This document shows positions 1 to 28,909 of a stretch of DNA of 64,000 nucleotides, piece after piece. Each line of letters starts with the position of its first letter. Position 1 is the stretch's first letter. The stretch comes from Macrostomum lignano. Taxonomy: Eukaryota. Where the stretch lies: the NCBI GenBank assembly GCA_002269645.1, contig NIVC01001157.1, positions 256,312 to 320,311 on the forward strand, in the 5' to 3' direction. The notes under the pieces are model-generated. The model did no database searches, was not told where the DNA came from, and worked only from the letters and a program-made list of their open reading frames with translations. The position numbers and the translations under genes are program-made.

Positions 1-1192
1 GCCAGATTGCGTCCCGCAATGCAATTGGCTGAGCTGTGCAACCCCCGACACGCGCTGCAGCGGAACCTGGGAAAGAGTTTGGGACACGCCTCGCAGGAGG
101 TGGCAGCCGTAACCAAGTGTACCCGGTGCTGCTTGTCAGAGTCAACGTACGTCTCGAAATCGTAGTAAACGTACGGGGCGCTAGACTCTTTGGCTTTGGG
201 CGGGGTGACAAAGCACTCGTAGGTGGCTGTTTCGTCGTACTGCTTGCAGACTGGATACTTGGAGTGACCGCACTGATGCTCGGGGGCCTGGCCCACTTTC
301 AGTTCTTCTAGATAGCCACACGTGCCGCAAACGTGGACTGAATCACAGCGAGATCTACCCGCCCTATTCTTGCGCTTGTGATTCTCTTGACACTGAGCAT
401 TATAGCAATTTAGCCCAATTTAATCATGGCATCTCACATGCGCGGTTATGCTTGCAGTTGGCACCCGGGGTCTTGCAGGTGCTGCAGGCGTCTGCGCACT
501 TGTGCTTGGCGTTGCCGCAATCGTAGGCCATCTCGCACTTGGAGCAGTAGTGGTGGCTGCCGAAAAACGCTGGCAGCTTGGTGATCACATTGAAGTGCTG
601 CTCTACGAGGTGGAGGTGCAGAATCTCGGTGCCAGGCAGGTTGAAGATGCACCTGTTGGCCTCCTCAGCCCGGTACACACGTACACCAAAATCATGGCCT
701 GGATGCAGCCGGTTCAGGGCACGGATCGCCTCGGGCAGTACATCCACCCGAAGGCCTGCGAGACGGTTTGAAGAGTGTGTGGGGGGTAAAATATTTATTT
801 TAGTATTCCCTGATACTATGTAGGATTCTTATCGGGAAAATAGTAGAAAATGGTTCTTTTAGTATTCCATGATACTATGTCAAGTGGTTCCTTTAGTAAT
901 CCATGAAAATACTATAAACTACACTATTTTAGTTGAAATTCTTTTCGGGAACATACTAGAAACTTACCGTGTAGAGGCCAGCCTCGATTTGCAGCTTAGT
1001 CGCCAGATTAATGTGCTTAAAAACAACATTCGGCCGTCATGCGGGATGCACGCACCGGGGAGTGTGGGCCGCTTTGAGCATTTTGTCGCTCTCAAATTTC
1101 GCCGCCATGAAATCCTCGCCGGCCAAGTCTTGCTTGAAAACTTTTAGCGTGTGGGCAAACACCTCCCACAAATCTTCAGTGTTACTAATGTG
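1..1192 (-). pseudogene. polB: Distal part of the protein-primed DNA polymerase B gene of the outer Polinton (Cys/His-rich N-terminus running into the exonuclease I motif), with stops/frameshifts; continues beyond window start
   Basis: Minus-strand translation across frames: VVHISNTEDLWEVF..., HLHLVEQHFNVITKLPAFFGSHHYCSKCEMAY...HKC (424-747), YNAQCQENHKRK...SRCDSVHVCGTCGY...EHQCGHSK, then YVYYDFETYVDSDKQHRVHLV (exo I DFET motif, ~115-180). Confidence 0.85.
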
Positions 1193-1198
1193 CACCAC

Positions 1199-1553
1199 AG
1201 TAGTAAGTAAAAGTACGCTTCCAGACCCAGAGGCACCTATTAAACAGCACATTTGAAGGGCTAGAGGGGGGACACGGGGGGAATCAAAAAAACACATGTA
1301 AACACTAAACAGCACAATTAAACACAATTAAACACCCCCAATACCCCCAATAACCCCATTTAATCAAAAACACTATTAACACACCCAATCAAATCCACAC
1401 ATCAGAAATCAAACCCCCATGTCCCCCCTCTAGCCCTTCAAATCCATTGTTTCAATAGGATCTGATCTAGAAGCGTACTTTTACATACTACTACATCCAA
1501 ACACACACAAACACTCTCTAACCCGTCGCCAGCGCCGCAGGCGCAAAGGGTCT
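1199..1553. repeat. Left TIR of inner Polinton
   Basis: Near-identical reverse complement of 12339-12694; begins AGTAGT. Confidence 0.93.
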
Positions 1554-1568
1554 TTTTCTGTTACGAAA

Positions 1569-1883
1569 ATGAACCGAGTTTACACCTTTTCAGTTAGTGA
1601 TACTTTTAAGACTGTTGCTAAAAATTCAGAGATTATAAAACAGCATATTTTGAATGGAATAATTGATGAAGTATATTTAAAATATGATGACAAAAAAGAT
1701 CTAAAACTTTATCCGTTAGATTTGGATGGTTTGTATGATCTAGAACGAGCGGGTGAGTTAATATTTCAACTTGGAGATTATTTAAATTCAGACGATTGGG
1801 AGGTTCGTTCAACTGATTCCGAGTCAACAAATAGTTCATATGAAACTAGTGACTCGGAGAATGAAATTGAAATTTTTATGTAA
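1569..1883 (+). CDS. Acidic hypothetical protein of inner Polinton (104 aa)
   Basis: AAAATG start immediately inside the TIR, open frame, acidic Ser/Thr-rich C-terminus; no family recognised. Confidence 0.5.
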   Translation: MNRVYTFSVSDTFKTVAKNSEIIKQHILNGIIDEVYLKYDDKKDLKLYPLDLDGLYDLERAGELIFQLGDYLNSDDWEVRSTDSESTNSSYETSDSENEIEIFM

Positions 1884-2091
1884 AAATGAATTATTACTCA
1901 GTAACAGAAACTACATTTATTGTGAAAAATATATTTAAAAAAATGAAGGTAAATCGTATCAATGATACGCATGCTTTTCATGATTATTCCTATATCGGAA
2001 ACGTGCCGGCCAATAATTATATTAGTAATAATATTGTTTTTCTTTGTTATAAAAAATTTACTACCCTGTTGCCTTAAGTAATTGTACGAAC

Positions 2092-2900
2092 TTAGTTCGC
2101 AGATATTATCTGGTTCTCATAAAAGGAACCCAATATTTCTTCACCATCTTTATCAGCAATGATATAGGTTGTAGGATTTGTATTTAAAACTTTACTGATG
2201 GTAAATTTCTCACTTATCTTCCAATATCCTTTTCTTCCCTTTTCAAACTTATCTTTCCATTTATAAATATAAACAGAATTACCAACTTTAAAACCTTTAG
2301 TTTTCTTTTTTTCAAACTCTCCAAAAGTGACTTTAACATTTTCAGGAGTGTTATAGCTTGTTGAGGAGTCATTTTTATAGCTGAATGATATGAATTATTA
2401 TAATCTTTCACAACGTCTGGTAATATTTTTACCCACTTTTGGTTACCATTAATACTAAACTGAAACCACAATTTCTTACCTAAAGTTCGATTAACTCTTT
2501 CAATCAGTGCGTTTTTGCTTTCTCCATAAATAGAATAAATTTTATTAATATACTCACCATTCGCGTCTTTTTTCCTTTCTTTTCCTTTTTCAAAATGATA
2601 CAATTTATACATATGATGATTGTAAAATTCTTTTCCTTCATCAACACACAACCTATCACTTTTTTCTCTAAGATTTTTAAAAGCAGCGGCAATCTCCTCT
2701 CCTTTTTTGGATTTCAAAGGAACAGCCCACGCATTTCGAGTAAGATATATCCAGATATAACTATCCAGTATGGTTAAGATATATTTATATCCTCTTTCGT
2801 TCGGCATTGACATTAAATCAGCATATCAAATTTCATTCTTTTTGAAGTTAATGATTTTTCTATAAAATTTAGGCTTTCGGTATTCTTTGTGAAGAACCTT
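2092..2900 (-). pseudogene. int: Polinton retroviral-like (rve/DDE) integrase, with a W-to-stop and a frameshift
   Basis: LHKEYRKP...NEI*YADLMSMP...YKYILTILD...AWAVPLKSK...LCVDEGKEF...ALIERVNRTL...YNNSYHSAIKMTP, plus C-terminal KVGNSVYIYKWKDKFEKG...TYIIADKDGEEILGSFYE. Confidence 0.88.
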
Positions 2901-2989
2901 TGCCTCATCAGAACTTAACCCACCACCACTTAATAACAAACACTCTACACAATTATTTTCATGTTGATTGTAATTAATTCCCAAACCAA

Positions 2990-3680
2990 ATTTCACTTTA
3001 GATTGCAAGATCTTTTTAACCATCCACCGAGTTAATCTCTGGCTTACCGATAATCCCTGTAAATTATCTAATCCTTCAATCATTTTTCTATCGGCTTCAT
3101 GCTTTAATCTTATGCTTCCTCAGGAGAATTCTTGTCAGCATCTCTGTATGCTAAGTCATGATAATATGCTAACCAATCAATACCATTGATGGGAATTGAA
3201 TCAGCTTTTGGAGTATCATCAGGATTTAATCTCAAATCCAGCCTAGTCCCGGGTAGTTTGCCCTCAATCTTTCGAAAGAGGCTGGAGCACACCTTAAGCG
3301 GTTAAATTACCACCCACCTCCGTCTGCTCTCTGAACCTTCTCCTTATACTTTTATACTTAGGAGCTTGACTGCGCATTGTCACCATGTCTTCAAGCTTGT
3401 TACCTTTGGGAAGAGGAGTTACCTCTGTTCCTTCAAAAGATTTCTCAATTGAAGTGGTACTTGAAGCTGTATGACGGGTTTCACGCAATTTGAAGGTGTC
3501 GCCACAAATAGTGACTAGCAGTAGCTTTGCTTCTACCACTCAGGCCACGGGTTAACCTGTGAAGTTCATTGATGGTAGGTGTAGTTCCCCAGTATATTTT
3601 CCAGTAGTAAAGATTGGTGGTAAGCCTGTTAGTCCTTTTTGAACATCTAAAAATCCACCTTCAAACAAAAGTTGGCTCAT
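2990..3680 (-). pseudogene. Parvovirus VP1-type phospholipase A2 gene, interrupted by a ~300-bp insertion and a 1-nt frameshift
   Basis: MSQLLFEGGFLDVQ...GELHLPSMNFTG / PGTRLDLRL...PINGIDWLAYYHDLAYRD...RLKHEADRKM...KVKFGLG; the FTGPG Ca-binding loop and HD motif match the Parvo_coat_N-type PLA2 pattern. Confidence 0.8.
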
Positions 3681-4292
3681 TTTTAATAGCCTTAAAAATA
3701 CAAGTTAACACTAATTGTTTTGCAAATTCTTTAATTGTTGGTTTTTTAACAAATTTAGTTTTATTATCCATAGCAGCTAGGTATCTTTTATTTGTCCAAT
3801 GTTCCGACTTTTTAATTTGTTCCTCATTGCGATAATCAAAAGATGAAGCAGGAATAAAATGATCCACATGCAAAACACCAATATAATCTTTTGGCAAATA
3901 ATAATGTTTGGTGAAATTTAACCAATCTTTAAAGAATTCAATTGGGCAACCAAGATAATAAATAGTATGGTTGTCTTTTTGACCATTAGTTGATTTTAAT
4001 AGTTTATTTATTCTAGTTCGCGTGTTTACAATAAGTTTGAAATTTTCATCTTCACTATATCTTGTTTTTCTATATTGATTAACTTTTTCTTTATTGTTTT
4101 GTGCATATATTAACTTTCTCTATAATTTTTTCTTTATTTTCAGCATAATATCGAGGATAGCAAATATTCTTTTTGATAAAATTTCCCACATTCTTTGCAA
4201 TTACCTTCATATCGATTCTGGGTTATTCTATATCTAAACTCAAGCAAAAAATTCTCTTCTTTACATCTACTACAGATCTTTTTAGTTTCCAT
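3661..4292 (-). pseudogene. HNH-type endonuclease (frameshifted)
   Basis: N-terminal CKEC zinc pair, TRYSEDENFKLIVNTRTRINKLLK...YLGCPIEFFKDWL, then LHVDHFIPASSFDY...HWTN...DNKTK. Confidence 0.65.
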
Positions 4293-4316
4293 TTTATGAA
4301 AAAATAAATTTAACAT

Positions 4317-4994
4317 CTAAATAATTCCTGTATGTCCAGCAGCTTTGGCAGCGGCTAAAACAAGTTTTCGTGGAGTTTTAAATCCTTCGCCAACAGCTCG
4401 TTTGTTATTTATTGATTGATCAATCCTTTTATACAAACTAGTGTTTTTAACACCCCCTACTCCTAACTCATCATAAAAAAATTTAGCACTTACTAATTCA
4501 TCCACAGTATATAAATCAGGATTAAACTTTACTCTAGGGTTCATAATAATATTATATGCTTCACCCAATTCTCTATATAGCTCATTCCGATTTTTATCAA
4601 CCCCACCAATTCGATAATTATCATTATCTAAATCCGTCACGCTAATACTTTGTGGAGAAGCTCTCTGATATTGTTCCCTACCACCCAGTTCTGCAGCCCT
4701 AATCTCTGCAACTCTCAATTGTGCTTGATCAACATCATAAGCGGGCGGTTCATCCTCAATTACATCTTCCTCTTTTGGCTCCGTATTCTTAGCAATTTTT
4801 TCAAGAAGCTCTTTATCAGTTTTTGTTAATTCACTAATTTTCCCCGTAATAGGATTAACAAAAGGAGCAGCAAATCTTTCACCAGCTAACTGTATTCCTA
4901 ACTTTCTTTTTTGTAAATCCCTAACAAAATCAGAATATCTTTGTTTCTCTTTATAAATCGCTAATTCACCATCAACATCCATAAATTGACTCAT
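4317..4994 (-). CDS. Polinton hypothetical protein (225 aa)
   Basis: Long open frame in AT-rich DNA, AAAAAATG start, head-to-head with the capsid gene; no family recognised. Confidence 0.6.
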   Translation of the reverse strand: MSQFMDVDGELAIYKEKQRYSDFVRDLQKRKLGIQLAGERFAAPFVNPITGKISELTKTDKELLEKIAKNTEPKEEDVIEDEPPAYDVDQAQLRVAEIRAAELGGREQYQRASPQSISVTDLDNDNYRIGGVDKNRNELYRELGEAYNIIMNPRVKFNPDLYTVDELVSAKFFYDELGVGGVKNTSLYKRIDQSINNKRAVGEGFKTPRKLVLAAAKAAGHTGII

Positions 4995-5028
4995 TTTTTA
5001 ACATAAAAAACTTTTTTAACTTAAAAAA

Positions 5029-5585
5029 ATGGCTGAAACAAAAAACAGATGGAGTGATAAGTATTATTTCAAAAAACCACGGCAATATATCAATGAGGTC
5101 AGGGCAAAAGATTTAAATTATACCCTACCAACAAGCGATAATTCAAACAATTTTACTACCGGAACGGTAACTTTTGATGTTGGTGCAACTAATACGATAC
5201 TAATGCAACTAAACGCATTTTCCGTGTTAGATGCTTATATACACGAAATGACGGAACAGCTCTTGCGGCCGGCGATATAGCCGATCGTTCTGGTATTGTT
5301 ATCGAGAAAGATTGGTTTTATAAATGTTTTTCCCAAGCGCAACTAAGAATTAACGGAGCTGAGGTTGAGACATCAACAAACCCCGCAGAGATTAATGGAG
5401 TTCTTAAACATTTAAATTATACTTATTTATCAAAACAGGTTGGTGATAATGTTGGATGGATGCCCGATAAGGGAGATGGTGGAGCAATAAATTTTCCTAC
5501 CATAGCACCAGCAGCCGGCGCAGATACCGCTGCTCTTATTAATTACCTTAATACAAACATAGTTCCCGTTGTTGTTGAGCTGTTG
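5029..5585 (+). pseudogene. N-terminal fragment of a Polinton double-jelly-roll major capsid protein (frameshifted, truncated)
   Basis: MAETKNRW...TVTFDV... then, in another frame, WFYKCFSQAQLRINGAEVETSTNP...VLKHLNY, resembling the conserved FSQxxxxxNGxxxE segment of Polinton MCPs. Confidence 0.6.
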
Positions 5586-6828
5586 AGCTAATTTTTTGTA
5601 CATTCAGCCGTATCTTGTTGTTTAGGACATTTGAGGGGTATGTTTGATGCTTCAAAATCAGCATATATTACAATTGGTTTTTTAATTGCCATAAAATGTT
5701 GTTGGAACTTTAATATTTGTTCTTTTTCATTGGGCATTACAACATTAGTAAATAATTAGGTTTTTAAGAGCACTTTCATTCTTTTTAAATGTGAAACAAT
5801 TTCTACATATTGGCATTCTATTTCCATTTGTTCTTAATAAGGAACAAATATCTTTTATGTATATATAATGTGTATTGTTTTCATGCTGTATGTACAATAA
5901 ATCGATTTGGTCTGGTGCTGTTATATCAGTTGCTGGCTTAATAAGAAAACATCTTTTTTTTATATCATTCTTTATCGTGTGCTTTAACCCAATCGTTTGG
6001 CTGTTCAATTGAAAATACATTAATATTTAACCCATTCATTTTTTCAATCTTATATATATCATCTATGGATACTGGGTAGGATATGTCTTTCATTATTATT
6101 TCATCCACATAATCTCTAATAATATATTTTATTTACATGCCATTTTACTTGTTTGTGATATTTTTGAATTAGTAAACACCATAATAAACACTTATCATCT
6201 TCATTGTTGGGATTTATGATCATGGGAGATGTAAATCCTGGATCCATATGTGATCGTCCTCGAAGAACTTCAATAGGAACAATCTTTACTGTGGCTGAGT
6301 TATAAGAAACAAAAATGAAGCCTGATCCGTTTTCTGTCATCTTATCAATCCATTTATCAAACTCTGCTTCGATATTATCAAATTGTTTGGTATATGTTCC
6401 CATTGATAAAAGTGACTTATATGATTCTTGTGAAAAGGTATTTATTACTTCAATTTCTGAAATTGCATTTATCATATTTGGTTTTTTAAATTCTGTTTCA
6501 ATTTCAATTTTATACCTAACTGGCTGCCGTTTGTTATTTTGTCTCATAGTATATTCGTCTAATACGGTCTTTAATTTTTCTTTCATTTGTTTAAAATATT
6601 CTTTATAATCTGTATTCATATCAATATTAATATTTATTATTTCAGCACCATTCGCTGGTGGTGATGCTGTTTGTTCGATAATATCTAATTGTGTTTGTAA
6701 ATTGATTTCATTTTCTGCTCTAATTCTAGCTTCTATTTCCGCCCTATCGGCAATTCGTTGTGCTTTGATTTGAGCTATTAATTGAGCTCTAAGTTCTGGG
6801 TTGTCGATTTGAGCTAAAATATTTCCAT
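5585..6828 (-). pseudogene. polB: 5' part of a second, different pPolB gene (GSG[W/F]-type N-terminus) truncated just after exonuclease motif I
   Basis: TENGSGFIF...LRGRSHMDP...IINPNNEDDKCLLWCLL; IDLLYI...THYIYIKDICSLL...ICRNC; PIVIYADFEAS at ~5650-5690. Confidence 0.8.
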
Positions 6829-6879
6829 TTTATAGAATAAAATTTATACAATGTTTGAATTATTGGTTTTTTAATTTTA

Positions 6880-7812
6880 TGTTTTGGGCATCCTGACCCT
6901 CCCCACAGGAGCTTATTCGAGTTCCGCTTTTGGTAACAGTAAGCCACTACCCATAACGTTTGCATTTAAGAAGATTCCTGAACCTGCTTTTGGTCGCATT
7001 TCGAGATATAATCCGCTTCCGTCATGTTTTTTAATTATGTTAAAATCTTTTCCTAATTTATTAAAAATTTTCTGAACCGCAGGTCTAAAATTAGCTCCGA
7101 TATTGTCGAAAAATCCTTTAGCTTCTTCGCCGGTTTTTCCAAGGTTTGACCGAATTCATGAAATTTGTCTGCGACAACTCCGCTTCCGTGGGTCATTCCT
7201 TGCAAGATTAAACCCTCACCGTGAGTTGTTCCTTTTAAAATTAAACCTTTTCCGGCTGCTAACCTAGCTTCTGCATTTTTTTTGTTCTGGTGTTGCTGAA
7301 CTACTATTAATTGTGTCTATAAGTTTTTGTTTGAATTGTGCGTCCTGCGTTATTTGCTGTCTTTGAAATTCTGCATCTCGTTTAGCTTTTTCATCCGCAG
7401 CTTTTTTGTCATTTACTGCTTTTGCAACTCCAGCCGCTCCACCAGCGACTCCTTCAGCCGCGGCAATTCCTCCAAAAATTATTGGGAGCAAAGTTGCAAG
7501 TGGAAGTATGCCCCCTTGTTTTTCTTTTAATTTTGCTCACTGTTTTCGGTTATCATGAATCCTTTTGCCTGCTAAACCGGCTGCTCCTGCTGCCCCAAGT
7601 CCTAAAAGGATTGGTAGAAAGGGTAGTAATCCACCATCCCTTTTTATGTGAGTCTCCATTAAAAATTTTACATCAGAATCTGTTAGCCTATAGGTTTTAC
7701 GGTTGTGCTTAAATGAAATGGGTCTTCCTTCTTGTGCATATTTTGCAGCGAGTTTAAAAGTATCAATATCATAATCCAATTTTTTACCTAAACGATCTAA
7801 TCTTTTTAACAT
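6880..7812 (-). pseudogene. Gly-rich virion core / membrane-active-like protein gene(s), frameshifted
   Basis: DGGLLPFLPILLGLGAAGAAGLAG (7537-7812), LPIIFGGIAAAEGVAGGAAGVAKAVNDKKAA (7264-7491) and repeated GxGL/GSG motifs (6884-7260); a pattern I recognise from Polinton structural genes. Confidence 0.5.
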
Positions 7813-8034
7813 TGAGTGACTATGTTTGTTATCATCTAAATTTAAGGTGTCTACTATTTCTCCTATAAAATAAAGACGATACTACTAAGCAACGGTAGAT
7901 CCGTCGATTTTGGAGGTGGGGTGGGTGTCAACCCTCCTCGCCTCTCATTGGCTGGCGCCCCGATCACTAGGTGATAGATACCCGTATCGATATCGGCGCT
8001 CGGCGCGCGCGCGCCGCAGGCGCGTGGCGCCAAG

Positions 8035-9435
8035 CGCCGCAGGCGCACCTACCGATATGTACCGATATGTATGCTCACCCTACCGACATGTACCCCGATA
8101 TGTACACCCTCCCGAGCCGCAGGCGCACCCTCCTGAGCCGCAGACGCCCATGCCGCAGGCGCCCCGAGTGTACACTCTCCCGAGCCAAAGGTACACTCTC
8201 CCCAGTACACTCTCCCCAGTACACTCTCCCGATATGTACACTCTCCACAGTACACTCTCCCGATATGTATGCATACACAGATATGTAGTCAACGATATTA
8301 GGCTAGTGAAAACTACTTATAGTAGGTGAAATTGAGTATATTTACATAAAAATGTAGATAAAACATATTGGTAGGTGAATAATGACGCATATTACATATT
8401 AAAATGTACATATTGGAGCATATGAGCAGCAAAAACACACAATGTAGGTGCATATTTGACAGAAATAGACAAAGCAGGTACTGTAAGCACTACATAGGTG
8501 GTAATACACACAGTATAAAGTAGGTTTACAAAGTGTACTTTCGATACATATCGGATTAATGTATAAAGCGGGTTTACAAGGCATGCATATATCAGAAGGT
8601 GTAGTTGTATAATACAGGCGCGCATGTATAATCAGATTATAGGCAAACGCCCAGGTGCAATTTCAACAGACGCGTAAATAATGTCACACCGACTAAAGAG
8701 TAAATATTGTCTAACCCGCAGGTGCATAAATATTAAACAAAAGCGGTTCGGGGAAATCCCAAAAGGGAGGTTTTAGCCGCCCGTTTTCGCCGCCCTAACC
8801 CTCTTATGGGTACAATTGCGTTGAAAATATTTCAAGTCATTAGGTTGTAAGACCCTCCATATTTTAGGTGGGTGGACTCGAGCCCGGGGCCAGCCCATTA
8901 CAGTTTTTTGGGCCGGCCCCTCTGCCAATTTCCTCCCTAGGTGCGAGCTATCAGAATTGGTCTTTTAACCCCCGTGTATACACACATAGAGGCCCCCCAG
9001 CTAGCGTCCCATTCTAACCTACCCAGTGTACAGTGTTGGGTTCCCCAAACCGCGTACAAAGAGAAATACCTTATCAGTCAATCTCCATACGCTCCCTCAG
9101 GGCTGTCTCGTACGCGGCCTCTTCCTCCACGCTCTCGAAGCAGTAGTCGGATGACTGGCAATGTGGAAATTATAACAGTCAATGTAGATAGAATATAGGC
9201 AAGGTATATGATTAGATGAGTTGTGTATACAGTGTAATATCTTACCAAACCTAAATCCTCCTCCAGCCGCCACAGGCGTAGAGACGCTGTATAGCGCACC
9301 AACGAAAGGTGCTCCTCCCAGTTGGTAGACCGGATAGCTACTGCAGGCTCATCCCACGCAGTCGGGCGCGCTCCCGGACCGGCCAGGTACGCCTCCGAGT
9401 CGGGGGCATACGAATTACGCCCTATTAGCCAATCC
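8035..9435. repeat. Left arm of a ~1.4-kb inverted duplication
   Basis: Reverse complement of 10661-12070 with a few substitutions and small indels; includes short TACACTCTCC and GCCGCAGGCGC repeats at 8035-8280. Confidence 0.93.
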
Positions 9436-10010
9436 TGGTGTAGCGTCTCCGCCTCCAGCACCTCCCGCAGATCAGCCCCTCGGGCCACCAAAGTATCAAG
9501 AACCCGATTAAAGGCTCTGACAAAGGTGGCTTGGGAGGGCAGGCCGCCAGGGTGGCGAGACCTCAACCAGTCAATGTCCCCGCGGAAAAATGAGGCCACA
9601 ATGCGAGGAAAGCGCTCACGAACCACGGCGATCTCCTCAGACATATCCTCGTCCTCATCGTCGAAGAGAAGGAGCGTAGAGGCTGATGATATTGAGGCCC
9701 GGTGGGAGGTAGTTGAAGCAGAGGCGGCAGCGGCAGAGACGGGCGCAGTAGAGACAGAGGCGGCAGCAGCAGCAGGGGCGCCGTTCACAACCCCGCCGAT
9801 AGCCAGCAGCGGGAGGTCAAAAACTTCAGAGTCGGTGTCGCTATCATAGGACATGGCCCAAGCTAGATATTGATCAGCCTCCCAATTATCGGTTCCGTTG
9901 TTTTCAGTGCCTAGGGGAACTATGTGTTCAGGGATATCACCCTCGAGGCTGGTTAACTCTTCAGTCGGGCGATTATTATCCCAGAGGTTGGATAGAGCTC
10001 GGCGGGCCAT
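9078..10010 (-). CDS. Orphan protein (310 aa), acidic/Ala-rich N-half
   Basis: CAACATGG start with a TATATAA box at ~10077-10083; homologous 5' end recurs at 14752-14790. Confidence 0.6.
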   Translation of the reverse strand: MARRALSNLWDNNRPTEELTSLEGDIPEHIVPLGTENNGTDNWEADQYLAWAMSYDSDTDSEVFDLPLLAIGGVVNGAPAAAAASVSTAPVSAAAASASTTSHRASISSASTLLLFDDEDEDMSEEIAVVRERFPRIVASFFRGDIDWLRSRHPGGLPSQATFVRAFNRVLDTLVARGADLREVLEAETLHQDWLIGRNSYAPDSEAYLAGPGARPTAWDEPAVAIRSTNWEEHLSLVRYTASLRLWRLEEDLGLVRYYTVYTTHLIIYLAYILSTLTVIISTLPVIRLLLRERGGRGRVRDSPEGAYGD

Positions 10011-10121
10011 GTTGGAATCAACAGAGAGTAAAGTATTAGAGCTAGGATAGGTTCGACTCTCCAGAGAGGAAACACTAATTATATAGACGGATCGAGTGAG
10101 GCGGTGCGAACCAATAGGAAA

Positions 10122-10655
10122 CTAGCAGTCCCAACCCTCGTTATACAGATTTTCCCAGGGCGGAGATTGGTAGGGTTTGAGACCCACAAGCTGAAGAACA
10201 TCCTCCTCAGTCCTGGCTACCGGAGGCGTGTCTGTCTTGACTCGCTTGGCTGGAGGGGGTGCCTCAGGTACCGGCTTGAAGAGCTTGTCCAAACGGGCGG
10301 CAAACATCCTGCGCCACAGTTCAGGCGTGAATTCGATCGTGTAGCGCCAATTAAACTTTGGGTCCTGATTGAGCCAATTGCGCAGCAAACGGATCCTCCC
10401 TCGCGAAGCTTCAACTGCCTTGAAATTGCCCAACAGGACCCGCTTGTTCACGTGAAGGCGGGCAGCAGCCTCCAGGTCAGGGCGCGCAGCTTCGAGCTTC
10501 TTCCACTCTGGCTCGCTCAAGTAGATTGCAGGGAAGCCGTCCTTCCACACTCCGGCCTCGTTGGTGTAGAGACGCCGAATTTCAATCAAGTTGTGTTCAG
10601 TTTCAAATGTGGGCTTCCGCGCCACAAAGTTTTCGTATAGAGAGATAGAAGACAT
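10122..10655 (-). CDS. Tandem PC4-like (putative ssDNA-binding) protein, 177 aa; original promoter replaced by the inverted arm
   Basis: LIEIRRLYTNEAGVWKDGFPAIYLSEPEWKKL fits the PC4 core pattern IDIRxY...GxxKxG..IxL..EQWxxL; a second weaker repeat ends TIEFTPELWRRM; close paralogue of 14090-14635. Confidence 0.6.
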   Translation of the reverse strand: MSSISLYENFVARKPTFETEHNLIEIRRLYTNEAGVWKDGFPAIYLSEPEWKKLEAARPDLEAAARLHVNKRVLLGNFKAVEASRGRIRLLRNWLNQDPKFNWRYTIEFTPELWRRMFAARLDKLFKPVPEAPPPAKRVKTDTPPVARTEEDVLQLVGLKPYQSPPWENLYNEGWDC

Positions 10656-10660
10656 GATTT

Positions 10661-12070
10661 GGATTGGCTAATAGGGCGTAATTCGTATGCCCCCGACTCG
10701 GAGGCGTACCTGGCCGGTCCGGGAGCGCGCCCGACTGCGTGGGATGAGCCTGCAGTCTGCTATCCGGTCCGGATAGCTACTGCTATCCGGTCTACCAACT
10801 GGGAGGAGCACCTTTCGTTGGTGCGCTATACAGCGTCTCTACGCCTGTGGCGGCTGGAGGAGGATTTAGGTTTGGTTAGATATTACACTGTATACACAAC
10901 TCATCTAATCATATACCTTGCCTATATTCTATCTACATTGACTGTTATAATTTCCACATTGCCAGTCATCCGACTACTGCTTCGAGAGCGTGGAGGAAGA
11001 GGCCGCGTACGAGACAGCCCTGAGGGAGCGTATGGAGATTGACTGATAAGGTATTTCTCTTTGTACGCGGTTTGGGGAACCCAACACTGTACACTGGGTA
11101 GGTTAGAATGGGACGCTAGCTGGGGGCCTCTATGTGTGTATACACGGGGGTTAAAAGACCAATTCTGATAGCTCGCACCTAGGGAGGAAATTGGCAGAGG
11201 GGCCGGCCCAAAAAACTGTAATGGGCTGGCCCCGGGCTCGAGTCCACCCACCTAAAATATGGAGGGTCTTACAACCTAATGACTTGAAATATTTTCAACG
11301 CAATTGTACCCATAAGAGGGTTAGGGCGGCGAAAACGGGCGGCTAAAACCTCCCTTTTGGGATTTCCCCGAACCGCTTTTGTTTAATATTTATGCACCTG
11401 CGGGTTAGACAATATTTACTCTTTAGTCGGTGTGACATTATTTACGCGTCTGTTGAAATTGCACCTGGGCGTTTGCCTATAATCTGATTATACATGCGCG
11501 CCTGTATTATACAACTACACCTTCTGATATATGCATGCCTTGTAAACCCGCTTTATACATTAATCCGATATGTATCGAAAGTACACTTTGTAAACCTACT
11601 TTATACTGTGTGTATTACCACCTATGTAGTGCTTACAGTACCTGCTTTGTCTATTTCTGTCAAATATGCACCTACATTGTGTGTTTTTGCTGCTCATATG
11701 CTCCAATATGTACATTTTAATATGTAATATGCGTCATTATTCACCTACCAATATGTTTTATCTACATTTTTATGTAAATATACTCAATTTCACCTACTAT
11801 AAGTAGTTTTCACTAGCCTAATATCGTTGACTACATATCTGTGTATGCATACATATCGGGAGAGTGTACTGTGGAGAGTGTACATATCGGGAGAGTGTAC
11901 TGGGGAGAGTGTACCTTTGGCTCGGGAGAGTGTACACTCAGGGCGCCTGCGGCATGGGCGTCTGCGGCTCAGGAGGGTGCGCCTGCGGCTCGGGAGGGTG
12001 TACATATCGGGGTACATGTCGGTAGGGTGAGCATACATATCGGTACATATCGGTAGGTGCGCCTGCGGCG
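10661..12070. repeat. Right arm of the ~1.4-kb inverted duplication
   Basis: Reverse complement of 8035-9435; carries the 3' half of the 310-aa ORF (10659-11042). Confidence 0.93.
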
Positions 12071-12218
12071 TATGTGATGTGAGCTGGGTTAATTTTTTTT
12101 TCGCTTCGTGATAAAATTGAGTTCTTCTTATATGCATTTATATAACATTTAGCTGCGTGGGTGGGGTGATGAATGTCCACATTCCATTTAGCTGCGTGGG
12201 TGGGGTGATGAATGCCCA

Positions 12219-12283
12219 CATTCCATTAAGGCCAGATTTTTGAAAACGAAAACGAAAACGAAAAATCTGGCCTTAATGGAATG
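12219..12283. repeat. Short hairpin: ~23-bp inverted repeat around a (GAAAAC)n loop, preceded by a 39-bp tandem duplication
   Basis: CATTCCATTAAGGCCAGATTTTT ... AAAAATCTGGCCTTAATGGAATG. Confidence 0.75.
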
Positions 12284-12338
12284 TTGAGTGCGTGGGTGAG
12301 CTGGCTAAAAATAGCTTCTATTCTTTCTCTACCATTCT

Positions 12339-12694
12339 AGACCCTTTGCGCCTGCGGCGCTGGCGACGGTTAGAGAGTGTTAGTGTGTGTTTGGATGTAG
12401 TAGTATGTAAAAGTACGCTTCTAGATCAGATCCTATTGAAACAATGGATTTGAAGGGCTAGAGGGGGGACATGGGGGTTTGATTTCTGATGTGAGGATTT
12501 GATTGGGTGTGTTAATAGTGTTTTTGATTAAATGGGGTTATTGGGGGTATTGGGGGTGTTTAATTGTGTTTAATTGTGCTGTTTAGTGTTTACATGTGTT
12601 TTTTTTATTCCCCCCCGTGTCCCCCTCTCTAGCCCTTCAAATGTGCTGTTTAATAGGTGCCTCTGGGTCTGGAAGCGTACTTTTACATACTACT
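12339..12694. repeat. Right TIR of inner Polinton
   Basis: Reverse complement of 1199-1553; ends ACTACT followed by TSD CACCAC. Confidence 0.93.
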
Positions 12695-13859
12695 CACCAC
12701 ATATTCAACGCCCTTTGCCCTAAACTTAGGCAGGTCGCGTTGATTATACAGCCGGGCCGTAAAACCTGCAGAGAATGAATGGGGGTGTGAGTCAGCCTGG
12801 GTCTGTCTGGGGAATGGGGGCTAGATAACTCACCCGGTCCGGTAACAGATTCCGGCTGTGTTGGCGGGACAAACGCGTCTGAAAAAAACACAAGGAGATA
12901 AAAACCAGAAGAATCTGTCATTTTCCTGGCCCCAGCGTGTTCGGACAAAGAGGCACCCCTCCCAACTCTATCCCAGCAAGTTCCTATCAGCCCTGGCACC
13001 CCTCTGTCGCAGCACCCTAACAGCAGCAATTCACCAACTCTATCCTGCAACTATTTCTTATCAGAGTCTTTGTTTACTCTTCTGCACCCCTCCAATTCTC
13101 ACAGACCCTGCAGCTGTTGCTGCTAACCCTGCTGAAACGTGTCAAGCCCTCCCCAGCAACTGTGTCTGTTTTTGCTACAGACCCCGCTAATTTCTTATCA
13201 GTACCCCAACCGCAGCACACCCCCCGCCTGTCTGGACACGCGCAGCACCCTATCTGCAGCCCCAGTCTTCGTTTACGCTGTCCCTGCCAGCCCGTGTAGC
13301 TATCACAGCACCGCTAAATCTACCTAGCACGTGTCTGCAATTTTTTAACCCTAACGATTATCTGTTACAGACCCTGCCTATTTCTTATCAGCAACGTACC
13401 CTCCTGCCTAGCAACTCCAGTCTAGACCCCTGCAGCTTTCGCAGCAGCCCCAGTCTTTGTTTACTCTGCTGCACCCCTCCAATTCCCTGCAGCAGTTAAC
13501 CCTAGCAACTCTCTGTCACCGCACCCCAACGATTATCTGTTACAGACCCTGCCAATTTCTTATCAGCACCCCAGCTGCAGCCTGTCTGGGCAGCTCCGTA
13601 CACGCACCCTATCTGCAGCCCCAGTCTTTGTTTACACGCGCAGCTCACCGTGCTGAAACTTGTCTAGACAGCGCTAAACCCTTGCAGCTGTCGCAGCAGC
13701 TCACCCCACTGCTAATTCTTATCGGTACCCTGCCGCAGCACCCTAGCAACTCTAGTCTAGACTGATAAACAACTGGCCAGAAATTAATTAAAACCTACCA
13801 TAAAGACGCTGCCTCTTATCAGCCAGGAAAGCAGTTGGTGCTGCGCTGCGTTTAGCCAT
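12695..13859 (-). pseudogene. polB: 5' end of the outer Polinton pPolB gene: exon 1 13859-13799, predicted intron 13798-12766, exon 2 from 12765 to the insertion site
   Basis: ATG at 13859 gives MAKRSAAPTAFLADKRQRLY+G|GTAGGT; acceptor ATTCATTCTCTGCAG|GT; joined frame GFTARLYNQRDLPKFRAKGVEYVV continues in frame as HISNTEDLWEVF at 1192 once the insert and one TSD copy are removed. Confidence 0.7.
13020..13760. repeat. Degenerate tandem repeat, unit ~170-195 bp, ~4 copies
   Basis: CAG(CCCCA)GTCTT(T/C)GTTTAC recurs at ~13062, 13257, 13445 and 13617 with shared downstream blocks. Confidence 0.7.
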
Positions 13860-13914
13860 TTTAAAAACAGAGAGCGGAGAGAGAAGGATTATCTCTCTAC
13901 CCCGGTTCTGGGGG

Positions 13915-14045
13915 TCTGTATATATACTAAAAATCTGCTCAGCTCGACTGTTATTGGTCAAATCACCAAAAACCAACCAAAATCATCAGAAATCGTCCCC
14001 AAAATCACCCCCACCCCACCCTCCATCCGGGGGTATATAAGGCGC
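13915..14045. promoter_or_regulatory. Divergent promoter region between polB and the PC4-like gene
   Basis: TATATATA at ~13919 upstream of the minus-strand ATG 13859; TATATAA at ~14034 about 55 bp upstream of the plus-strand ATG 14090. Confidence 0.55.
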
Positions 14046-14089
14046 TGCACGGCTGTCAGAGAGCTCTGTGCTGCTGCTACTGCTAAATC

Positions 14090-14635
14090 ATGTCTTCTAT
14101 CTCTGTATACGAAAACTTTGTGGCGCGGAAGCCCACATTTGAAACCGAGCACAACTTGATTGAAGTTCGGCTGCTCTACACCAACGAGGCTGGAGTGTGG
14201 AAGGACGGCTTCCCTGCAATCTACTTGAGCGAGCAAGAGTGGAAGAAGCTCGAAGCTGCGCGCCCTGACCTGGAGGCTGCTGCCCGCCTTCACGTGTACA
14301 AGCGGGTCGTGTTGGGCAATTTCAAGGCTGTCGAGGCTTCGCAAGGAAGGATTCGTTTGCTGCGCGATTGGCTCAACGTGGACCCAAAGTTTAATTGGCG
14401 CTACACGATCGAATTCACGCCTGAACTGTGGCGCAGGATGTTTGCCTCCCGTTTGGACAAGCTCTTCAAGCCGGCACCTGAGGCCCCACCGCCTGCCAAG
14501 CGAGCCAAGACAGAGACCCCTCCGGTAGCCAGGACTGAGGAGGAAAATCTGCAGGACGTTCTTCAGGTTGTGGGTCTCAAACCCTACCAATCCCCGCCCT
14601 GGGAAAATATGTATGACGAGGGTCGGCACTGGTAG
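14090..14635 (+). CDS. Tandem PC4-like protein (181 aa) of the outer Polinton
   Basis: Intact ORF with TATA box and AAATCATG start; LIEVRLLYTNEAGVWKDGFPAIYLSEQEWKKL motif. Confidence 0.62.
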   Translation: MSSISVYENFVARKPTFETEHNLIEVRLLYTNEAGVWKDGFPAIYLSEQEWKKLEAARPDLEAAARLHVYKRVVLGNFKAVEASQGRIRLLRDWLNVDPKFNWRYTIEFTPELWRRMFASRLDKLFKPAPEAPPPAKRAKTETPPVARTEEENLQDVLQVVGLKPYQSPPWENMYDEGRHW

Positions 14636-14974
14636 TTTCCTATTGGCTCACACCACCTCACTGGGATCTACTATATAATTAGTGTTTCCTCTCTCTCCAG
14701 AGAGCCAAACCCCATCCTAGCTCTAATACTTTACTCTCTGTTGATTCCAACATGTCCCGCCGAGCTCTATTTAACCTCTGGGATAATAATGTGAAAGTAT
14801 GAAAGTGTGACAGTACTTTCATTTAAAAATGGCCCCACTGGTGTCCATTATAAGCGTTCTCATTGGTTGATAAGATTATACAAAAGAGAGACTGGAAATG
14901 ACTTGTTACTAAAAATAACTCAACACTGCTAATGCGATCGTATTTCAAATTGGCTAAGTCATAACCCGTAACCG

Positions 14975-15629
14975 TCACTGTCTCCACGTCGCTGCATCCG
15001 CCTGGTAGCGCACCTCGTCCCGAATGAGCTTCATATTTTCCAGAACGAAGCTAACTGGTACGGTGCAGCGCTGTAGGGCCGGAAATTCTGTCAATAAGTC
15101 GTACACTCTCAACTTCTTGTCCAAAGTCTGCCTCGATACTTGTAGATTAAGCCGTCGAATTATATTCCGAACCGACTTTAGTGTAAGTTTAGGTCGGTGA
15201 ATGATGAAGCCGATGTAAAATGACACAATTAATGTGCGCTTATCGTAAAAAGTCTCAAGCTGAAATAATTCCGCCAGCATGTTCTGTAGTGGGTAAAACA
15301 GTGGGTAGATGACTAAAGTTCAACGCGCGCATACTTTCCTCGATCACTGATAGCTCCCTTGTTGGCGCTTGAACTTCGACTCCATACGAAGCACGAAGGC
15401 ACTGGAAAACAGCAGCTACTCGTGCTTCGTAGGCGGAAATATCGCGTTGGGTTTGTCCTTTCATGCTAGCCAAATCGTATTGTATTTCCTCCTCTTTGAA
15501 TTTTTCAAACAATTGATGGAGTCCATCTCTCCGCTCTAAAGGTATTAAATTAATCAAATCGTTCACAAATGCGTTAAGTCGAGCGGTTCTAACTGTAATT
15601 CTTTCAGCCATTGCGTTTTCTAATAGCAA
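14975..15629 (-). pseudogene. Unnamed Polinton-associated family, paralogue 1 (frameshift near 15255-15280)
   Basis: C-terminal YDLLTEFPALQRCTVPVSFVLENMKLIR...DAATW motif shared with 42147-42869 and 57548-58219. Confidence 0.5.
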
Positions 15630-15832
15630 TTAAGTGAAAAAGGCTGGCCGGCTTCCGCCTTTACTTAAAAAAACGTTTTCCGCTCGCGTTTGAGCTCTTA
15701 GCCAATAAGCTCACCCGCAAGAGCCAATGCGGGTTTGAGGTGGTAGTGGTTGCTGAGTCTTGGTTATGCGCAGTTCAGTTAAGACGTGGCTAAAAATTTG
15801 CTAAATCATGCTAGCTAAAATCGATTATGGTA

Positions 15833-16260
15833 TCATTCTGCTCTATCAACCCCCAGCTCTTTCAGCAGTCTTCCTAGATCTTTACTTGGCGCATGCAATA
15901 CAAAACCCGCCCCTTTACCCAAACAGCCGCCAAGCCCCAACCCCAACTTTGTCTTTCCAAAAATAACAGCTTTAACTAGCTTCCGAGCGATCGATTCCTT
16001 ACACCCGCTGGAAGTCCTCATATTGTCTAATCTCCTAAGCATTTCTTTGTCCCAGCAATTCTACTCTGGAAAATCCCTATACTAAACGTCGTGCCACATG
16101 CAGACAGAGCTCGTTCAACGGCTCAGGCCCAGGATTTGGATTATTGTTTTTATATAACTGAATTTCAAGCGGATTCAAAGGCCCGCAATATTTGTAGCCA
16201 GGAATTGTCCAGCCTTTGTTTTCGATGAGGAAGCAGTTTAATTAATCCGTGAGCATCAGC
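15833..16260 (-). pseudogene. Parvovirus-type PLA2, copy 2
   Basis: WTIPGYKYCGPLNPL...EPLNEL...HDV*YRD...KEMLRRLD...GKTKLGLG. Confidence 0.78.
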
Positions 16261-16288
16261 CATTTTTTTGAAAAAATAAATTCTAAAA

Positions 16289-16795
16289 ATGGCAGAAGAA
16301 AAACTTAAATCTGTCTACTACAGTGACAAAGGATTGTTTTGTAGGAAAAAATGCCGTTAGTAAACTCATGGAGCTGAGTAAGGAACCAAAAGCTACAGTA
16401 GAAAAGTGGCTCTCCAAGCAAGCAGTCTACCAAGTCTATTTCCCACCTGTTCAATTTACAAGACCTCACTTTGAGATCTATACGAGCGTAAACCTAATGA
16501 GGCGCACCAAGCAGATATTCTGTTTCTCACCAATGACTCAGGCTACAAGTATGCTCTCACAGTTATAGACATTGCCTCCAGATATAAGGAAGCGAGACCA
16601 CTTAAGACAAAGAAGTCAGAAGCAGTTGCAGCTGCGCCATCCAAGAAATTTACAAAAACTCTCAGCTTACATACCCCCAAACCTTTATGACTGATCCTGG
16701 CAAAGAATTCATGGGTGCAGTCAAATCCCTTATGGAAAAGAACAATACGAAAATGCGCTACGGAAGAACTGAGCTCCACAGAGACCAGGCTGAGG
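16289..16795 (+). pseudogene. int: Polinton integrase, copy 2 (frameshifted, 3'-truncated)
   Basis: MAEEKLKSVYYSD...VEKWLSKQAVYQVY...RPHF...PNEAHQADIL...YKYALTVIDIASRYKEARPLKTK...MTDPGKEFMG...HRDQ. Confidence 0.85.
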
Positions 16796-16891
16796 CGGCG
16801 TTTGACTTAAGTTATTTGATACTCTATATTATTCTACATTATCACAACTTGTTTATTATATTTTTGTTCTTATTTTATTCCACTGCAAGTA

Positions 16892-18199
16892 CGAGAATAA
16901 GTCACTCAGAAAGTTCTTAGCTTGAACACGAAAACAGCAACAAATGAACTAAAAAACGACTACAAGTGCTCAAAATACTCTCCACCGGCATTGATACAGG
17001 CTTGCATCCTGTGAAACCAGCTGTCGAAGCACTGCCGCCAATCCTCATCCCGGAGCTCCTCGATGATGTTTTTAAACTCATTCACAGCTTCTTCCGGTGA
17101 AGAAAAGACCTGGCCCTTCAGAATCTCCTTGCACTTCGGAAACAGAAAAAAGTCGCACGGTGCCAGGTCTGGACTGTAAGCAGGGTGAGTCATCAGCTGG
17201 ACCCCACAGTCAGCCAGAAACTCCAGAGTTTGAGCCGCCGTGTGCGCGCTGGCGTTGTCGTGGTGCAGAAGCACCCCACGCATTCCGCACCTTGGGCGCC
17301 TCTGGCTCACAGCAGAAAAGACCTTGGGCAGGCAAACCGTTGTGTACCAGTCAGCGGTGACTGTCTGGCGATCTTCAAGTGAAACGGAAGCCACATGCCC
17401 AGTGCGCATGAAGAAACAGGCCACCATCTGCTTGCCGACACTCCGGCTGCGTCGAAACTTTGTGGGGCTGTCCTCGTCTCCAAAGGTCCACATGGCTGAC
17501 TGGCGCTTGCTTTCGGGGTCGTATTGATAAATCCAGGTCTCATCGCCCGTGAGGATGTCCCAGATACGCCGGCTGGTCCCGGATTCGAATTTCTGCAGCA
17601 TGAATCGGCACCAAGCCACCCTGGTGTCCTTCTGCACGTCCGACAGCTGATGGGGGATCCACTGGGAAGCCAGCTTCCGCACTCCAAGGTGTTCGTGCAT
17701 AATGGCGTGCACACTCCCCGATCCAATACCGATCTCCTGCTGGATCTGCTGGTAGGTCACTCGCCGGTCAGCGGCAATCATGCTGGACACAGCGCAGATA
17801 TTTTGTGGAGTCACTGCGTCACAGGGTCTCCCGGATCGATGTTCATCTTCGAGGCTTTCTCGACCTCGGCGAAACTCAGCAAACCAGTTTTTGACGGTTG
17901 CGTATGAAGGACATACATGGGTGAAAACGTTCTGTAAAGTTTGATACGATTCGGCCGGCGACTTGCCTTGCTTGAAGTGCAGGTACAACATTGCTCTGAA
18001 GTCGCGATTTTCCAGCTTCATTGTTGAATTGAAGAACTCAGGGGTGAACTGACTTTAACTCGCTGCAGTGGACTCAAAAGTGGCTGCTTCTGTTTGAAAT
18101 TTTTGCTGTGATACTTTTAAAAGTTGGTCTTTACCATAGACAAATTTCATGCTTCTACGTCTCGTGGATCCTACTCAGGCTAAAGACTTTCTGAGATCG
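16892..18199 (-). mobile_element. Mariner transposon, full length (~1.3 kb)
   Basis: TA at 16890-16891 and 18200-18201; imperfect TIRs sharing TCAGAAAGT(TC/CT)TTAGC(T/C)TGA; intact transposase inside. Confidence 0.88.
16960..18021 (-). CDS. Mariner D,D34D transposase (353 aa, intact)
   Basis: WIPHQL, TGDETWIY, HHDNASAH, YSPDLAPCDFFLF; 34 residues counted between the second and third Asp. Confidence 0.95.
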   Translation of the reverse strand: MKLENRDFRAMLYLHFKQGKSPAESYQTLQNVFTHVCPSYATVKNWFAEFRRGRESLEDEHRSGRPCDAVTPQNICAVSSMIAADRRVTYQQIQQEIGIGSGSVHAIMHEHLGVRKLASQWIPHQLSDVQKDTRVAWCRFMLQKFESGTSRRIWDILTGDETWIYQYDPESKRQSAMWTFGDEDSPTKFRRSRSVGKQMVACFFMRTGHVASVSLEDRQTVTADWYTTVCLPKVFSAVSQRRPRCGMRGVLLHHDNASAHTAAQTLEFLADCGVQLMTHPAYSPDLAPCDFFLFPKCKEILKGQVFSSPEEAVNEFKNIIEELRDEDWRQCFDSWFHRMQACINAGGEYFEHL

Positions 18200-18298
18200 T
18201 ACATACTCATTTTCTCTAGAACACTCTGTCTACCTGTGTGCGCCTAGCCCACCACCCCAAATATTGTCATCTTCCACCACTGTCTCCTGATCGCTATA

Positions 18299-21125: not shown

Positions 21126-21134
21126 GGCTAGTGC

Positions 21135-21330
21135 ACAACGATACTCAACAAGGATCCTTTTGAGTATCGCCCCTGCGCCCCCCTTCTTTTCTGATTCTGT
21201 CGGGGATAATATGGATGGATTTAATGGGATTATGTTCGAAGTTTTTAGAGCAAGTGCGGCCCCCCTTTTTTTATTCTGTTGGGGATAACATGTGTGGATT
21301 TAATGGGATAATGGAGGACGTGAAAAATTT
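21135..21330. repeat. Dispersed repeat with an internal duplication; related inverted copy at ~41010-41200
   Basis: TTCTGTCGGGGATAATATGGATGGATTTAATGGGAT vs ATCCATCCATATTATCCCTGACAGAA. Confidence 0.6.
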
Positions 21331-21344
21331 TGTCCCAAAAGCCC

Positions 21345-21590
21345 CCTCATGCATTTTACTCTTCCTAATTTTCTGTTAATGAGCCTCATTATGACGGCTC
21401 GATTGCGCCATATTGTGCAACTTTTCAGCGCCAAGGAAGGCTGCTTTGAGTGCATGGAGGCAGCAGAACAGTTCCTATTTCAGATACTAGCAGCCGACAA
21501 GTGCCTAAGATGTGACTGCGGCCCTATGCTTGCAGCACAAGGCAGCGGCCACATCACTCTCCTCCAGCTAAAATCGTAAATTGTCAACTT
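21345..21590. repeat. Fragment of unclassified repeat family
   Basis: TGTTAATGAGCCTCA(T/A)TATGACG...GATTGCGCCAT block shared with ~22640-22770 and ~62560-62760. Confidence 0.75.
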
Positions 21591-27263: not shown

Positions 27264-27278
27264 AAAGTGAAGCTGTGC

Positions 27279-28079: not shown

Positions 28080-28909
28080 GAATCCGTCCAGAGTCCCGAC
28101 TACGCTCTCAAATGCATTCTCGATTCGATAGGTTGAATTGGATTAATGCGTTTTTTAAAGCTTATTTGCTTGGTTTTGCTTTGCATAAGGAATATTCCGT
28201 GAATGAGTCAAACACAGACGCTTTTATTTACAAGTAAGCGTACGTTCATCATAGTACTTTCTTTCTACGTACTTTCAAGCGTAGCTCTTAGGGCTTAGGG
28301 CGTTGGGGGGGGGGGCAGGCAGTCCTTGTTTTGCCTCCTCTCTCTCAACTCAACCCCGCGCGATCGATAATGGACGGGAGACGGTTTGCTTCATGTGGTG
28401 AGGGTATGCACACGATTTTAATGTACAGCGGAGAGCTTTTTAGCTAACATGTTTATCAGTAGAGAATGGGTCGATTAAATTCAGTGGAGAGTTGTCTATT
28501 TGCCAAACTTATTCAATTGATGTTAGAAAAATGTGTACATTCTGACTGACGCCAAGTACAAGCATGCATATAGAAAGCGAGAATTGAACAGCTAGTTATT
28601 TGCGAAGTTCTTAAAAATTGAGTTATTTCTGCTTAATGGAATGAAGAATTTTCAGTAAATGATTAGAATCTACATTTAGTATAGGTAGCTTTTCAAACTG
28701 ATTAGTCATACCTTCATGATATTTGTTTCATTTATACGCACTTATTACAAAAACAAAATTAACTATCTGTTGGTGGGGCGTGGGCGCCTGTCGTTTGGTG
28801 GGTGGGCACCCTGTATCTTACAGTGCGCCCTTGTCTCTTAAATGGGCGTCCGTGTCCCTTAGGTGGGCGCCCCTATCATTCATCGAGCTTATACCCCATC
28901 GTTTCGTTG

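Follow-up and report, generated by a model that had tools for sequence, protein, structure and literature searches.

A protein-primed DNA polymerase gene of seven exons in a probably Polinton-derived element of Macrostomum lignano without a detected integrase

The window analysed here is a stretch of 64,000 nucleotides from the genome of the laboratory flatworm Macrostomum lignano (assembly GCA_002269645.1, contig NIVC01001157.1, positions 256,312 to 320,311), and it contains a broken copy of a polB gene that diverges from a second gene, gene A (Table 1). TATA-like runs lie between the two genes, near 13926-13919 (-) and 14034-14041 (+). A preliminary description had read the first of these runs, the ATG, the 61-nt exon and its GTAGGT donor, and, 1,033 nt further along the minus strand, a CTGAC at 12795 and an AG at 12767-12766 as the beginning of an intron-bearing polymerase gene, and all of these landmarks are where it placed them; the CTGAC is the sole one within the 1,033-nt stretch. 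It left unmentioned that a nested element of 11.5 kb breaks the polymerase frame at 12694. This Polinton remnant is flanked by copies of its 6-bp duplication at 12695-12700 and 1193-1198, and its integrase remnant (2107-2792) lies outside the polB element described here. Beyond the insertion, about 265 nt of the sister sequence are missing near 1010, a stop follows near 1040, and the acceptor of the next intron differs from the acceptor supported by contigs in the sisters, hence its approximate 3' end. No left TIR of the polB element was found up to position 25000. Given the nested insertion, the deletion, the stops and the loss of the far side near 14790, the window's polB copy is dead.

Table 1. 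Features of the broken polB locus, in window coordinates
Feature	Position	Strand	Basis
Likely bidirectional promoter, polB (-) / PC4-like gene (+)	13860..14089	.	sequence; putative function
polB exon 1, 61 nt, phase 1, ATG at 13859	13799..13859	-	sequence, sister loci
Intron 1a, 920 nt, donor GTAGGT at 13798	12879..13798	-	contig skip in sister, sister comparison
45-nt in-frame exon	12834..12878	-	contig joints, sister conservation
Intron 1b, 68 nt, donor GTGAGT, with CTGAC at 12795, a pyrimidine tract and CAG	12766..12833	-	contig skips
5' piece of next polB exon, ending in the nested element's 6-bp target duplication	12695..12765	-	sequence
Nested 11.5-kb Polinton remnant, AGTAGT ends, cutting the polB copy	1199..12694	.	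sequence comparison
3' piece of the exon interrupted at 12694	968..1198	-	sister comparison
Following intron, donor GTAAGT at 967, with an approximate 3' end	757..967	-	sister comparison, contigs
Start of large polB exon, broken, running past the window start	1..756	-	sister comparison
Gene A, 181 aa, predicted ssDNA-binding protein with a tandem PC4/PUR-like fold	14090..14635	+	profile, model, homology
Gene B stub, truncated by an unrelated repeated element that starts near 14790	14752..14790	+	sequence comparison
Palindromic polB-less derivative of the ACTACT family, inside the nested Polinton	7881..12070	.	sequence comparison

The window holds further mobile and repeated sequence. The derivative inside the nested Polinton has its terminus at 7881 and carries genes A and B; gene B (9081-10010, minus strand) encodes about 300 aa without a Pfam family, occurs in part of family 1, the family of the window copy, and overlaps the TIR. 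The matching place in contig C1158 (L040/L076, G000:C1158) holds a polB-bearing copy instead of 7881-12070, which reflects either a rearrangement or an assembly difference. The integrase at 16290-16740 was considered as part of the polB element and rejected, since it sits in a separate repeated family starting near 14800. This repeated element (14790-21360) has terminal repeats, contains a mariner (16963-18054) and gypsy remnants besides the integrase remnant, and is presumably Ginger-like, judging from its TGT start. A transposase frame of 817 aa (24828-28142, minus strand), which we take to be hAT-like, is preceded by a coding tandem array of 12.5 copies of 48 bp, and a perfect inverted repeat of 3,087 nt (47141-50227 and 57713-60799, 7.5 kb apart) has an 18-bp tandem array in each arm. 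Pfam searches with seven frames of the window gave weak matches only.

All evidence for splicing comes from assembled contigs, whose joints mostly have sides shorter than 31 nt. Contigs from four runs of four studies (X1, X2, X5 and X9), guessed to be RNA by run type, were aligned to one sister copy at 86% likeness. A 741-nt GT..AG skip, homologous to intron 1a of the window, was seen in X1 and X9, and a 70-nt GT..AG skip in all four runs; together they leave a 45-nt in-frame exon between them. Further GT..AG skips measured 296 nt (X1, X5 and X9, with X2 2 nt off), 67 nt (X1 and X2) and 83 nt (X1, X2 and X9), and a 71-nt intron is missing from one X2 contig that spans it. Sister copies thus have pPolB in seven exons, and every one of the six introns is skipped in contigs. 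In the alignment to the window, a 68-nt skip corresponding to intron 1b occurs in X1 and X9 and is absent from X14 and X15, DNA-type controls of uncertain kind whose contigs cover intron 1b unspliced. Precise removal from RNA and not from DNA is therefore seen with guessed run types and for intron 1b, to which this control applies. The exon-1 junction appears in the window alignment, at 90% likeness, as a loose end in X1 alone; because it carries sister-copy alleles, splicing is established for the family and not for the window's own copy. That the splicing is real we regard as almost certain. The introns have the GT-AG ends, branch-like site and pyrimidine tract of the major spliceosomal class, and Rfam ribozyme models of group I/II introns had no match in three loci (L001, L021 and L096). 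Spliceosomal splicing of a protein-primed polB gene, as put forward in the preliminary description, is thus supported by contig skips and by comparison among copies, with the spliced contigs aligned to family 1.

It is possible that the 1,033-nt stretch is a single intron, as originally claimed, and that exon 1 is joined straight to the next large exon. This join is GT..AG, in phase 1, and does run in frame with the polymerase because the length of the 45-nt exon is divisible by three; it could represent a minor skip form. However, the predicted junction from 13799 to 12765 is absent among the joints of the window (a complete list) and among the stronger joints of the sister copy (seven weaker ones lie beyond these), whereas both sub-introns are present. 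The 45-nt exon is moreover the most conserved part of the stretch, with a family-2 counterpart in four of ten loci by tblastn; in the window it lies between a pyrimidine-rich AG and a GTGAGT, and both its splice sites are used in contigs. The branch-like site and acceptor attributed to the long intron are parts of the 68-nt intron 1b. Thus, two introns and a small exon very probably take the place of the one intron, and a direct join as the main form strikes us as very unlikely. Without splicing, the reading frame of exon 1 ends at a stop 23 codons on. Part of intron 1a is still present in one X2 contig from which intron 1b has been removed, and in X9 the joint of 1a is weaker than that of 1b (16 versus 108), which is not repeated in X1 (57 versus 74); the X2 contig and the X9 joint strengths give a weak hint that intron 1a is retained.

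Comparison within the genome points the same way. A search of its 764 Mb, in which 40 of 76 candidates were scored, gave about 40 copies. Both ends of the 1,033-nt stretch could be located in 18 of the first 20 loci, all GT..AG and 603-1,305 nt apart; the GTAGGT donor occurs only in the window copy and its twin, GTAAGT in the other 18. Exon 1 is 61 nt long in all 31 of the 38 sister loci in which it was located, and, of 39 sequences, 37 have the 45-nt exon, placed between an AG and a GTGAGT. The window's 45-nt exon is 87-100% identical to that of six sisters and intron 1a 57-65%. Across the 38 family-1 loci, the junctions located are GT..AG in 29/29, 36/36, 29/30, 29/29, 30/30 and 29/29 cases for the six introns in order, with lengths of 487-1188, 67-72, 77-320, 65-144, 67-88 and 69-75 nt. 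Since the shortest intron of any class measures 65 nt, no copy among these loci is intronless. All seven exons were located in 26 family-1 loci, every exon having its model length in 10 and at least one an altered length in 16. The expectation that sisters keep GT/AG and frame while the intron varies was therefore correct for the sister loci.

The last three introns interrupt the catalytic region: two split polymerase motifs A and B, and the third follows directly after the DTDS of motif C. Among 94 distant homologues of at least 1,000 aa each, the exon ends abut in 62 of 64, 83 of 83 and 35 of 40 alignable cases, and exon 2 matched 31, its conserved start preceding the first Met (residue 38). 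Neither exon 1 nor the 45-nt exon matched any of the 94, so exon 1 lacks the distant counterpart for which the preliminary description proposed to look, and it is kept in sister loci within the genome. Matches to PF03175 on two exons (E 7e-14 and 1e-12) identify a protein-primed family B polymerase. The median dN/dS is 0.093 (85 of 91 pairs from 14 copies), and polB is under purifying selection. A polB query matched 6,170 representatives, and multi-exon automatic gene models of it are already in UniRef.

The element that carries this gene is 8,455-9,773 bp long, with TIRs of 0.9-1.4 kb and ends 5'-ACTACT..AGTAGT-3', and perfect 6-bp target duplications flank all 14 elements with both ends, two of which are probably one insertion in two haplotypes. 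Long TIRs and a 6-bp duplication are what is expected of a Polinton. The ends are not, as they read ACTACT in family 1 and ACTACG in family 2 rather than (AGT)2 or (AG)3. The end pattern has 175 matches in the genome and a control pattern none; about 50 of the 175 were inspected as elements, 75 being outside the matches listed, and there may thus be a member that carries an integrase. Certain target duplications are found again at unrelated copies or fall in GACA repeats. Bases 10-29 of the TIR consist of exchangeable blocks that vary between copies but, within a copy, are usually alike at both ends.

The genes of the element are polB, the divergent gene A and often gene B, which has no known family. 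Gene A matches PF02229 in a family-2 member (E 1.7e-6; only E 0.14 for the window protein), its profile finds PC4 matches only in the PDB (E 0.0036), and its model (pLDDT 81.6) has the lancelet adintovirus MOSUB as best viral match; a single-sequence model reached pLDDT 42 with no significant fold match. The PC4 gene of the genome's Polintons matches gene A directly (E 8e-6), and Atlas calls it PC4-like with a score of 0.85, which we use as a lead only. With a PC4 domain indicated by both sequence and fold, gene A is a predicted single-stranded DNA-binding protein; its relatives among sequences of near length are M. lignano entries only. One family-2 copy has a dUTPase-like frame within its TIRs (L107:2607-3134), which shares 43% identity with its counterpart in one of the genome's full Polintons.

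The genome also contains full Polintons of 16-17 kb, which have AGTAGT ends, a PC4 gene, an intronless polB and an rve integrase. Used as queries, the integrase, the ATPase and the capsid of these Polintons, the latter two named by position and motif without a Pfam match, strongly match control loci; in 90 element stretches, they gave matches only on the flanks and one weak match that could not be placed. One flank match reflects an element inserted inside a Polinton capsid gene. Pfam had no match among 115 non-polB frames, nor for the integrase control in the same search. For an adenovirus-like cysteine protease, a further Polinton gene, the element offers little space outside the TIRs, genes A and B and polB. 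Thus, neither a retrovirus-like (RVE) integrase nor a packaging ATPase or major and minor capsid genes were found in the 90 stretches, which cover part of the family members. The Polinton definition, as worded in the cited portion of PMC5499653, requires an RVE integrase. As none was found inside, the element falls outside that definition, and its six introns depart from the intronless core genes of Polintons. The preliminary description was right to see a protein-primed polB, and its label of a Polinton gene does not extend to a host element without the defining integrase; in its working the element corresponds to the half of a Polinton that serves replication. The family has inserted independently at least twice into full Polintons, in one case into a capsid gene (L031/L032, L063 and window 7881).

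Other elements (L084-L086, L092, L094 and L095; for example G000:C56:88644-97024) are gene-less, near-perfect palindromes of 7-9.5 kb with arms at least 99% identical. They share only the terminal ~450 bp with polB elements, carry 6-bp target duplications and are likely satellites. Since palindromes and gene-less satellites share these termini and keep perfect duplications, the cis signals would lie at the ends and not in an intron, so that the suggestion of a replication origin in the intron repeats is unlikely to be right. The common termini could also mean that the element is one segment of a multipartite, bidnavirus-like virus or element, with an unseen ACTACT-ended segment carrying integrase and virion genes. 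Bidnavirus segments are described as having common termini in the cited portion of PMC8502044, and the elements inspected represent about 50 of the 175 end matches. However, the 12 sets of stretches fetched by their ends contained polB elements, non-coding palindromes or nested elements of retro/mariner type, with no Polinton integrase, ATPase or capsid inside them, and we consider a multipartite arrangement improbable.

It is also conceivable that the polymerase is a passenger in an element that moves by cut-and-paste with a borrowed integrase, its introns having built up in a gene no longer needed. The altered exon lengths in 16 of the 26 fully located copies would agree with this, as would the movement of gene-less satellites. 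However, a dN/dS of 0.09 and the retention of exon lengths and splice sites across two families argue for a polymerase in use, and the palindromic derivatives and the block-wise TIR matching within a copy would fit strand-displacement replication of the adenovirus type. A mere passenger is therefore hardly credible.

The second family supports an early origin of the introns. Family 2, whose UniRef name is M. lignano DNA polymerase, has about 65% protein identity to family 1 in the large exon, ACTACG ends and a length of about 9.5 kb without insertions. Five alignable intron positions are common to both families, with GT/AG there in most of ten loci, and the long first intron of family 2 was delimited by eye. 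The introns arose before the split of the two families, probably once the lineage was freed from fitting a capsid or leaving the nucleus. In a quick tree, which we do not use to claim a donor, families 1 and 2 form one long branch with support 100; the best full-length relatives beyond M. lignano entries are at most 37% identical, and five intronless polB genes from the genome's other Polintons, giving no alignment to the large exon, were left out. A distant pPolB2-like query found only the intron-bearing families among the 36 candidates scored of 461, and no viral or metagenome contig matched in a scan for the polymerase together with two neighbours. Two loci resembling a third group proved to be family-1 remnants, and the family-2 end pattern was dropped as unspecific (12 matches versus 43 in the control). 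Two family-2 copies (L097/L096 and L101/L100) have non-LTR retrotransposon-like frames within a CAG-rich exon 1.

The ~185-bp repeats reported for intron 1a do exist, but they are not clean tandem units: Tandem Repeats Finder listed no array in the intron, GATAAGA, used as a landmark word, returns after 159, 175, 190 and 137 nt, and the identity among the four units is 49-65% (45-53% in shuffles). The intron is rather made of short modules in shifting order with words that we take to be GATA- and Fox-like. The window's intron 1a has 6+2 GATA-like and 3+1 Fox-like words where shuffles average 0.5 and 0.2, and eight sisters have similar counts; counts of presumed E-box-like words are mostly inside the shuffle range. 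One explanation, to which we give even chances, is that intron 1a is neutral, slippage-prone filler whose words were multiplied by duplication, for which shuffles cannot correct. Its length (487-1188 nt) and low identity among sisters speak for this, as does family 2, where intron 1a has other words and no GATA or Fox enrichment. Against it, each of the 30 cores examined keeps GATA/Fox-like words in at least two copies, nearly always on one strand, and intron 2, which is unrelated and AT-rich, also contains GATA-like words, if not above the shuffle maximum. Since words can be multiplied by duplication and those of family 2 differ, an enhancer is only possible, and a regulatory role of the array seems to us somewhat doubtful. 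The earlier ideas of an enhancer and of control through splicing may still apply, with weak hints for them and the words of family 2 against.

We favour, as the probable reading, a seven-exon protein-primed polB in a ~9-kb Polinton-derived element without integrase or virion genes that likely borrows its integrase. The steps of this scheme draw on knowledge of Polintons and adenoviruses. The host spliceosome would make the polB mRNA, and no polymerase could be made without splicing because the introns cut motifs A, B and C. With help from gene A, the polymerase would start by protein priming on the ACTACT ends of the freed, linear DNA and copy it. A retroviral-type integrase acting in trans would excise and reinsert the element, producing the 6-bp duplications. 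Finding no integrase or capsid gene in the element is why we propose self-copying with a borrowed integrase, and such borrowing is rather likely. The integrase-bearing Polintons of the genome are the likely helpers, but that those found have AGTAGT and not ACTACT ends speaks against it. Intron 1a, a module array of variable length, may act as an additional tissue-specific enhancer, or its retention may limit expression. A bolder scenario, in which a long-lived Polinton lineage without virion and integrase genes became an intron-rich nuclear replicon that parasitises full Polintons, sustains palindromic satellites of its own and uses intron 1a as a tissue gate through enhancer activity and regulated retention, appears unlikely to hold in full.

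Spliced expression of a protein-primed polymerase and a DNA-binding protein has a precedent in the adenovirus E2 module; however, adenovirus neither integrates nor splits catalytic motifs by introns. Retention of IVS3 in the Drosophila P element controls a mobility enzyme, and there the retention is regulated, whereas the present element offers a weak hint of retention. From homologue names and domain layout, the element may belong with the Beta/pPolB2 group; its insert is termed VSR-like because the homologue P0015 bears that name. With pPolB2 Polintons/Mavericks (Beta adintoviruses), as described in the cited portions of the literature, it shares a protein-primed PolB (PF03175), the VSR-like insert, long TIRs, a 6-bp target duplication and a PC4/MOSUB-like gene. 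Unlike these, which measure 15-25 kb (10.1101/2023.08.22.554363; PMC8502044), it is 8.5-9.8 kb long, has 5'-ACTACT ends and six spliceosomal introns in polB, and no integrase, ATPase or capsid was found in it. Maverick core genes are stated to be intronless in the cited portions of PMC8097293 and 10.1101/2022.07.12.499685, against which the intron is indeed unusual, as had been claimed. The same portions read a terminal short repeat of vertebrate and nematode Mavericks, shared by the element, as a jump-back signal, and PMC8097293 gives an AC-starting end type for a swamp eel Maverick. Nematode Mavericks also carry intron-bearing genes (10.1101/2022.07.12.499685); however, the introns of vertebrate and nematode Mavericks lie in host-derived cargo, those of the element in the replicase itself. 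Dinoflagellate eupolintoviral elements have spliceosomal-type introns too, introners that are described as mostly recent, post-integration and mostly non-coding, whereas the introns here hold fixed positions in two diverged families (PMC12166617). Group I introns of protist Polinton-like viruses are self-splicing (PMC12220804), in contrast to the element's introns, without Rfam match in three loci. Further background is found in PMC6431247 and 10.64898/2026.10.13.758929.

No description of the element was found in the literature searched, Repbase and supplements aside. An endogenous-virus survey assumes no introns and uses prokaryotic gene callers (PMC10120064), and a nematode survey relied on integrase-linked pPolB (10.1101/2022.07.12.499685), as far as the cited portions state. 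Because Polinton surveys rely on intronless genes and a linked integrase, this class would have been missed. A selected, transcribed pPolB with six fixed introns and no detected integrase or capsid suggests a route from virus to host-dependent transposon. If this is true, intron-rich replicons would be invisible to open-reading-frame and integrase-linked surveys, and they may be widespread.
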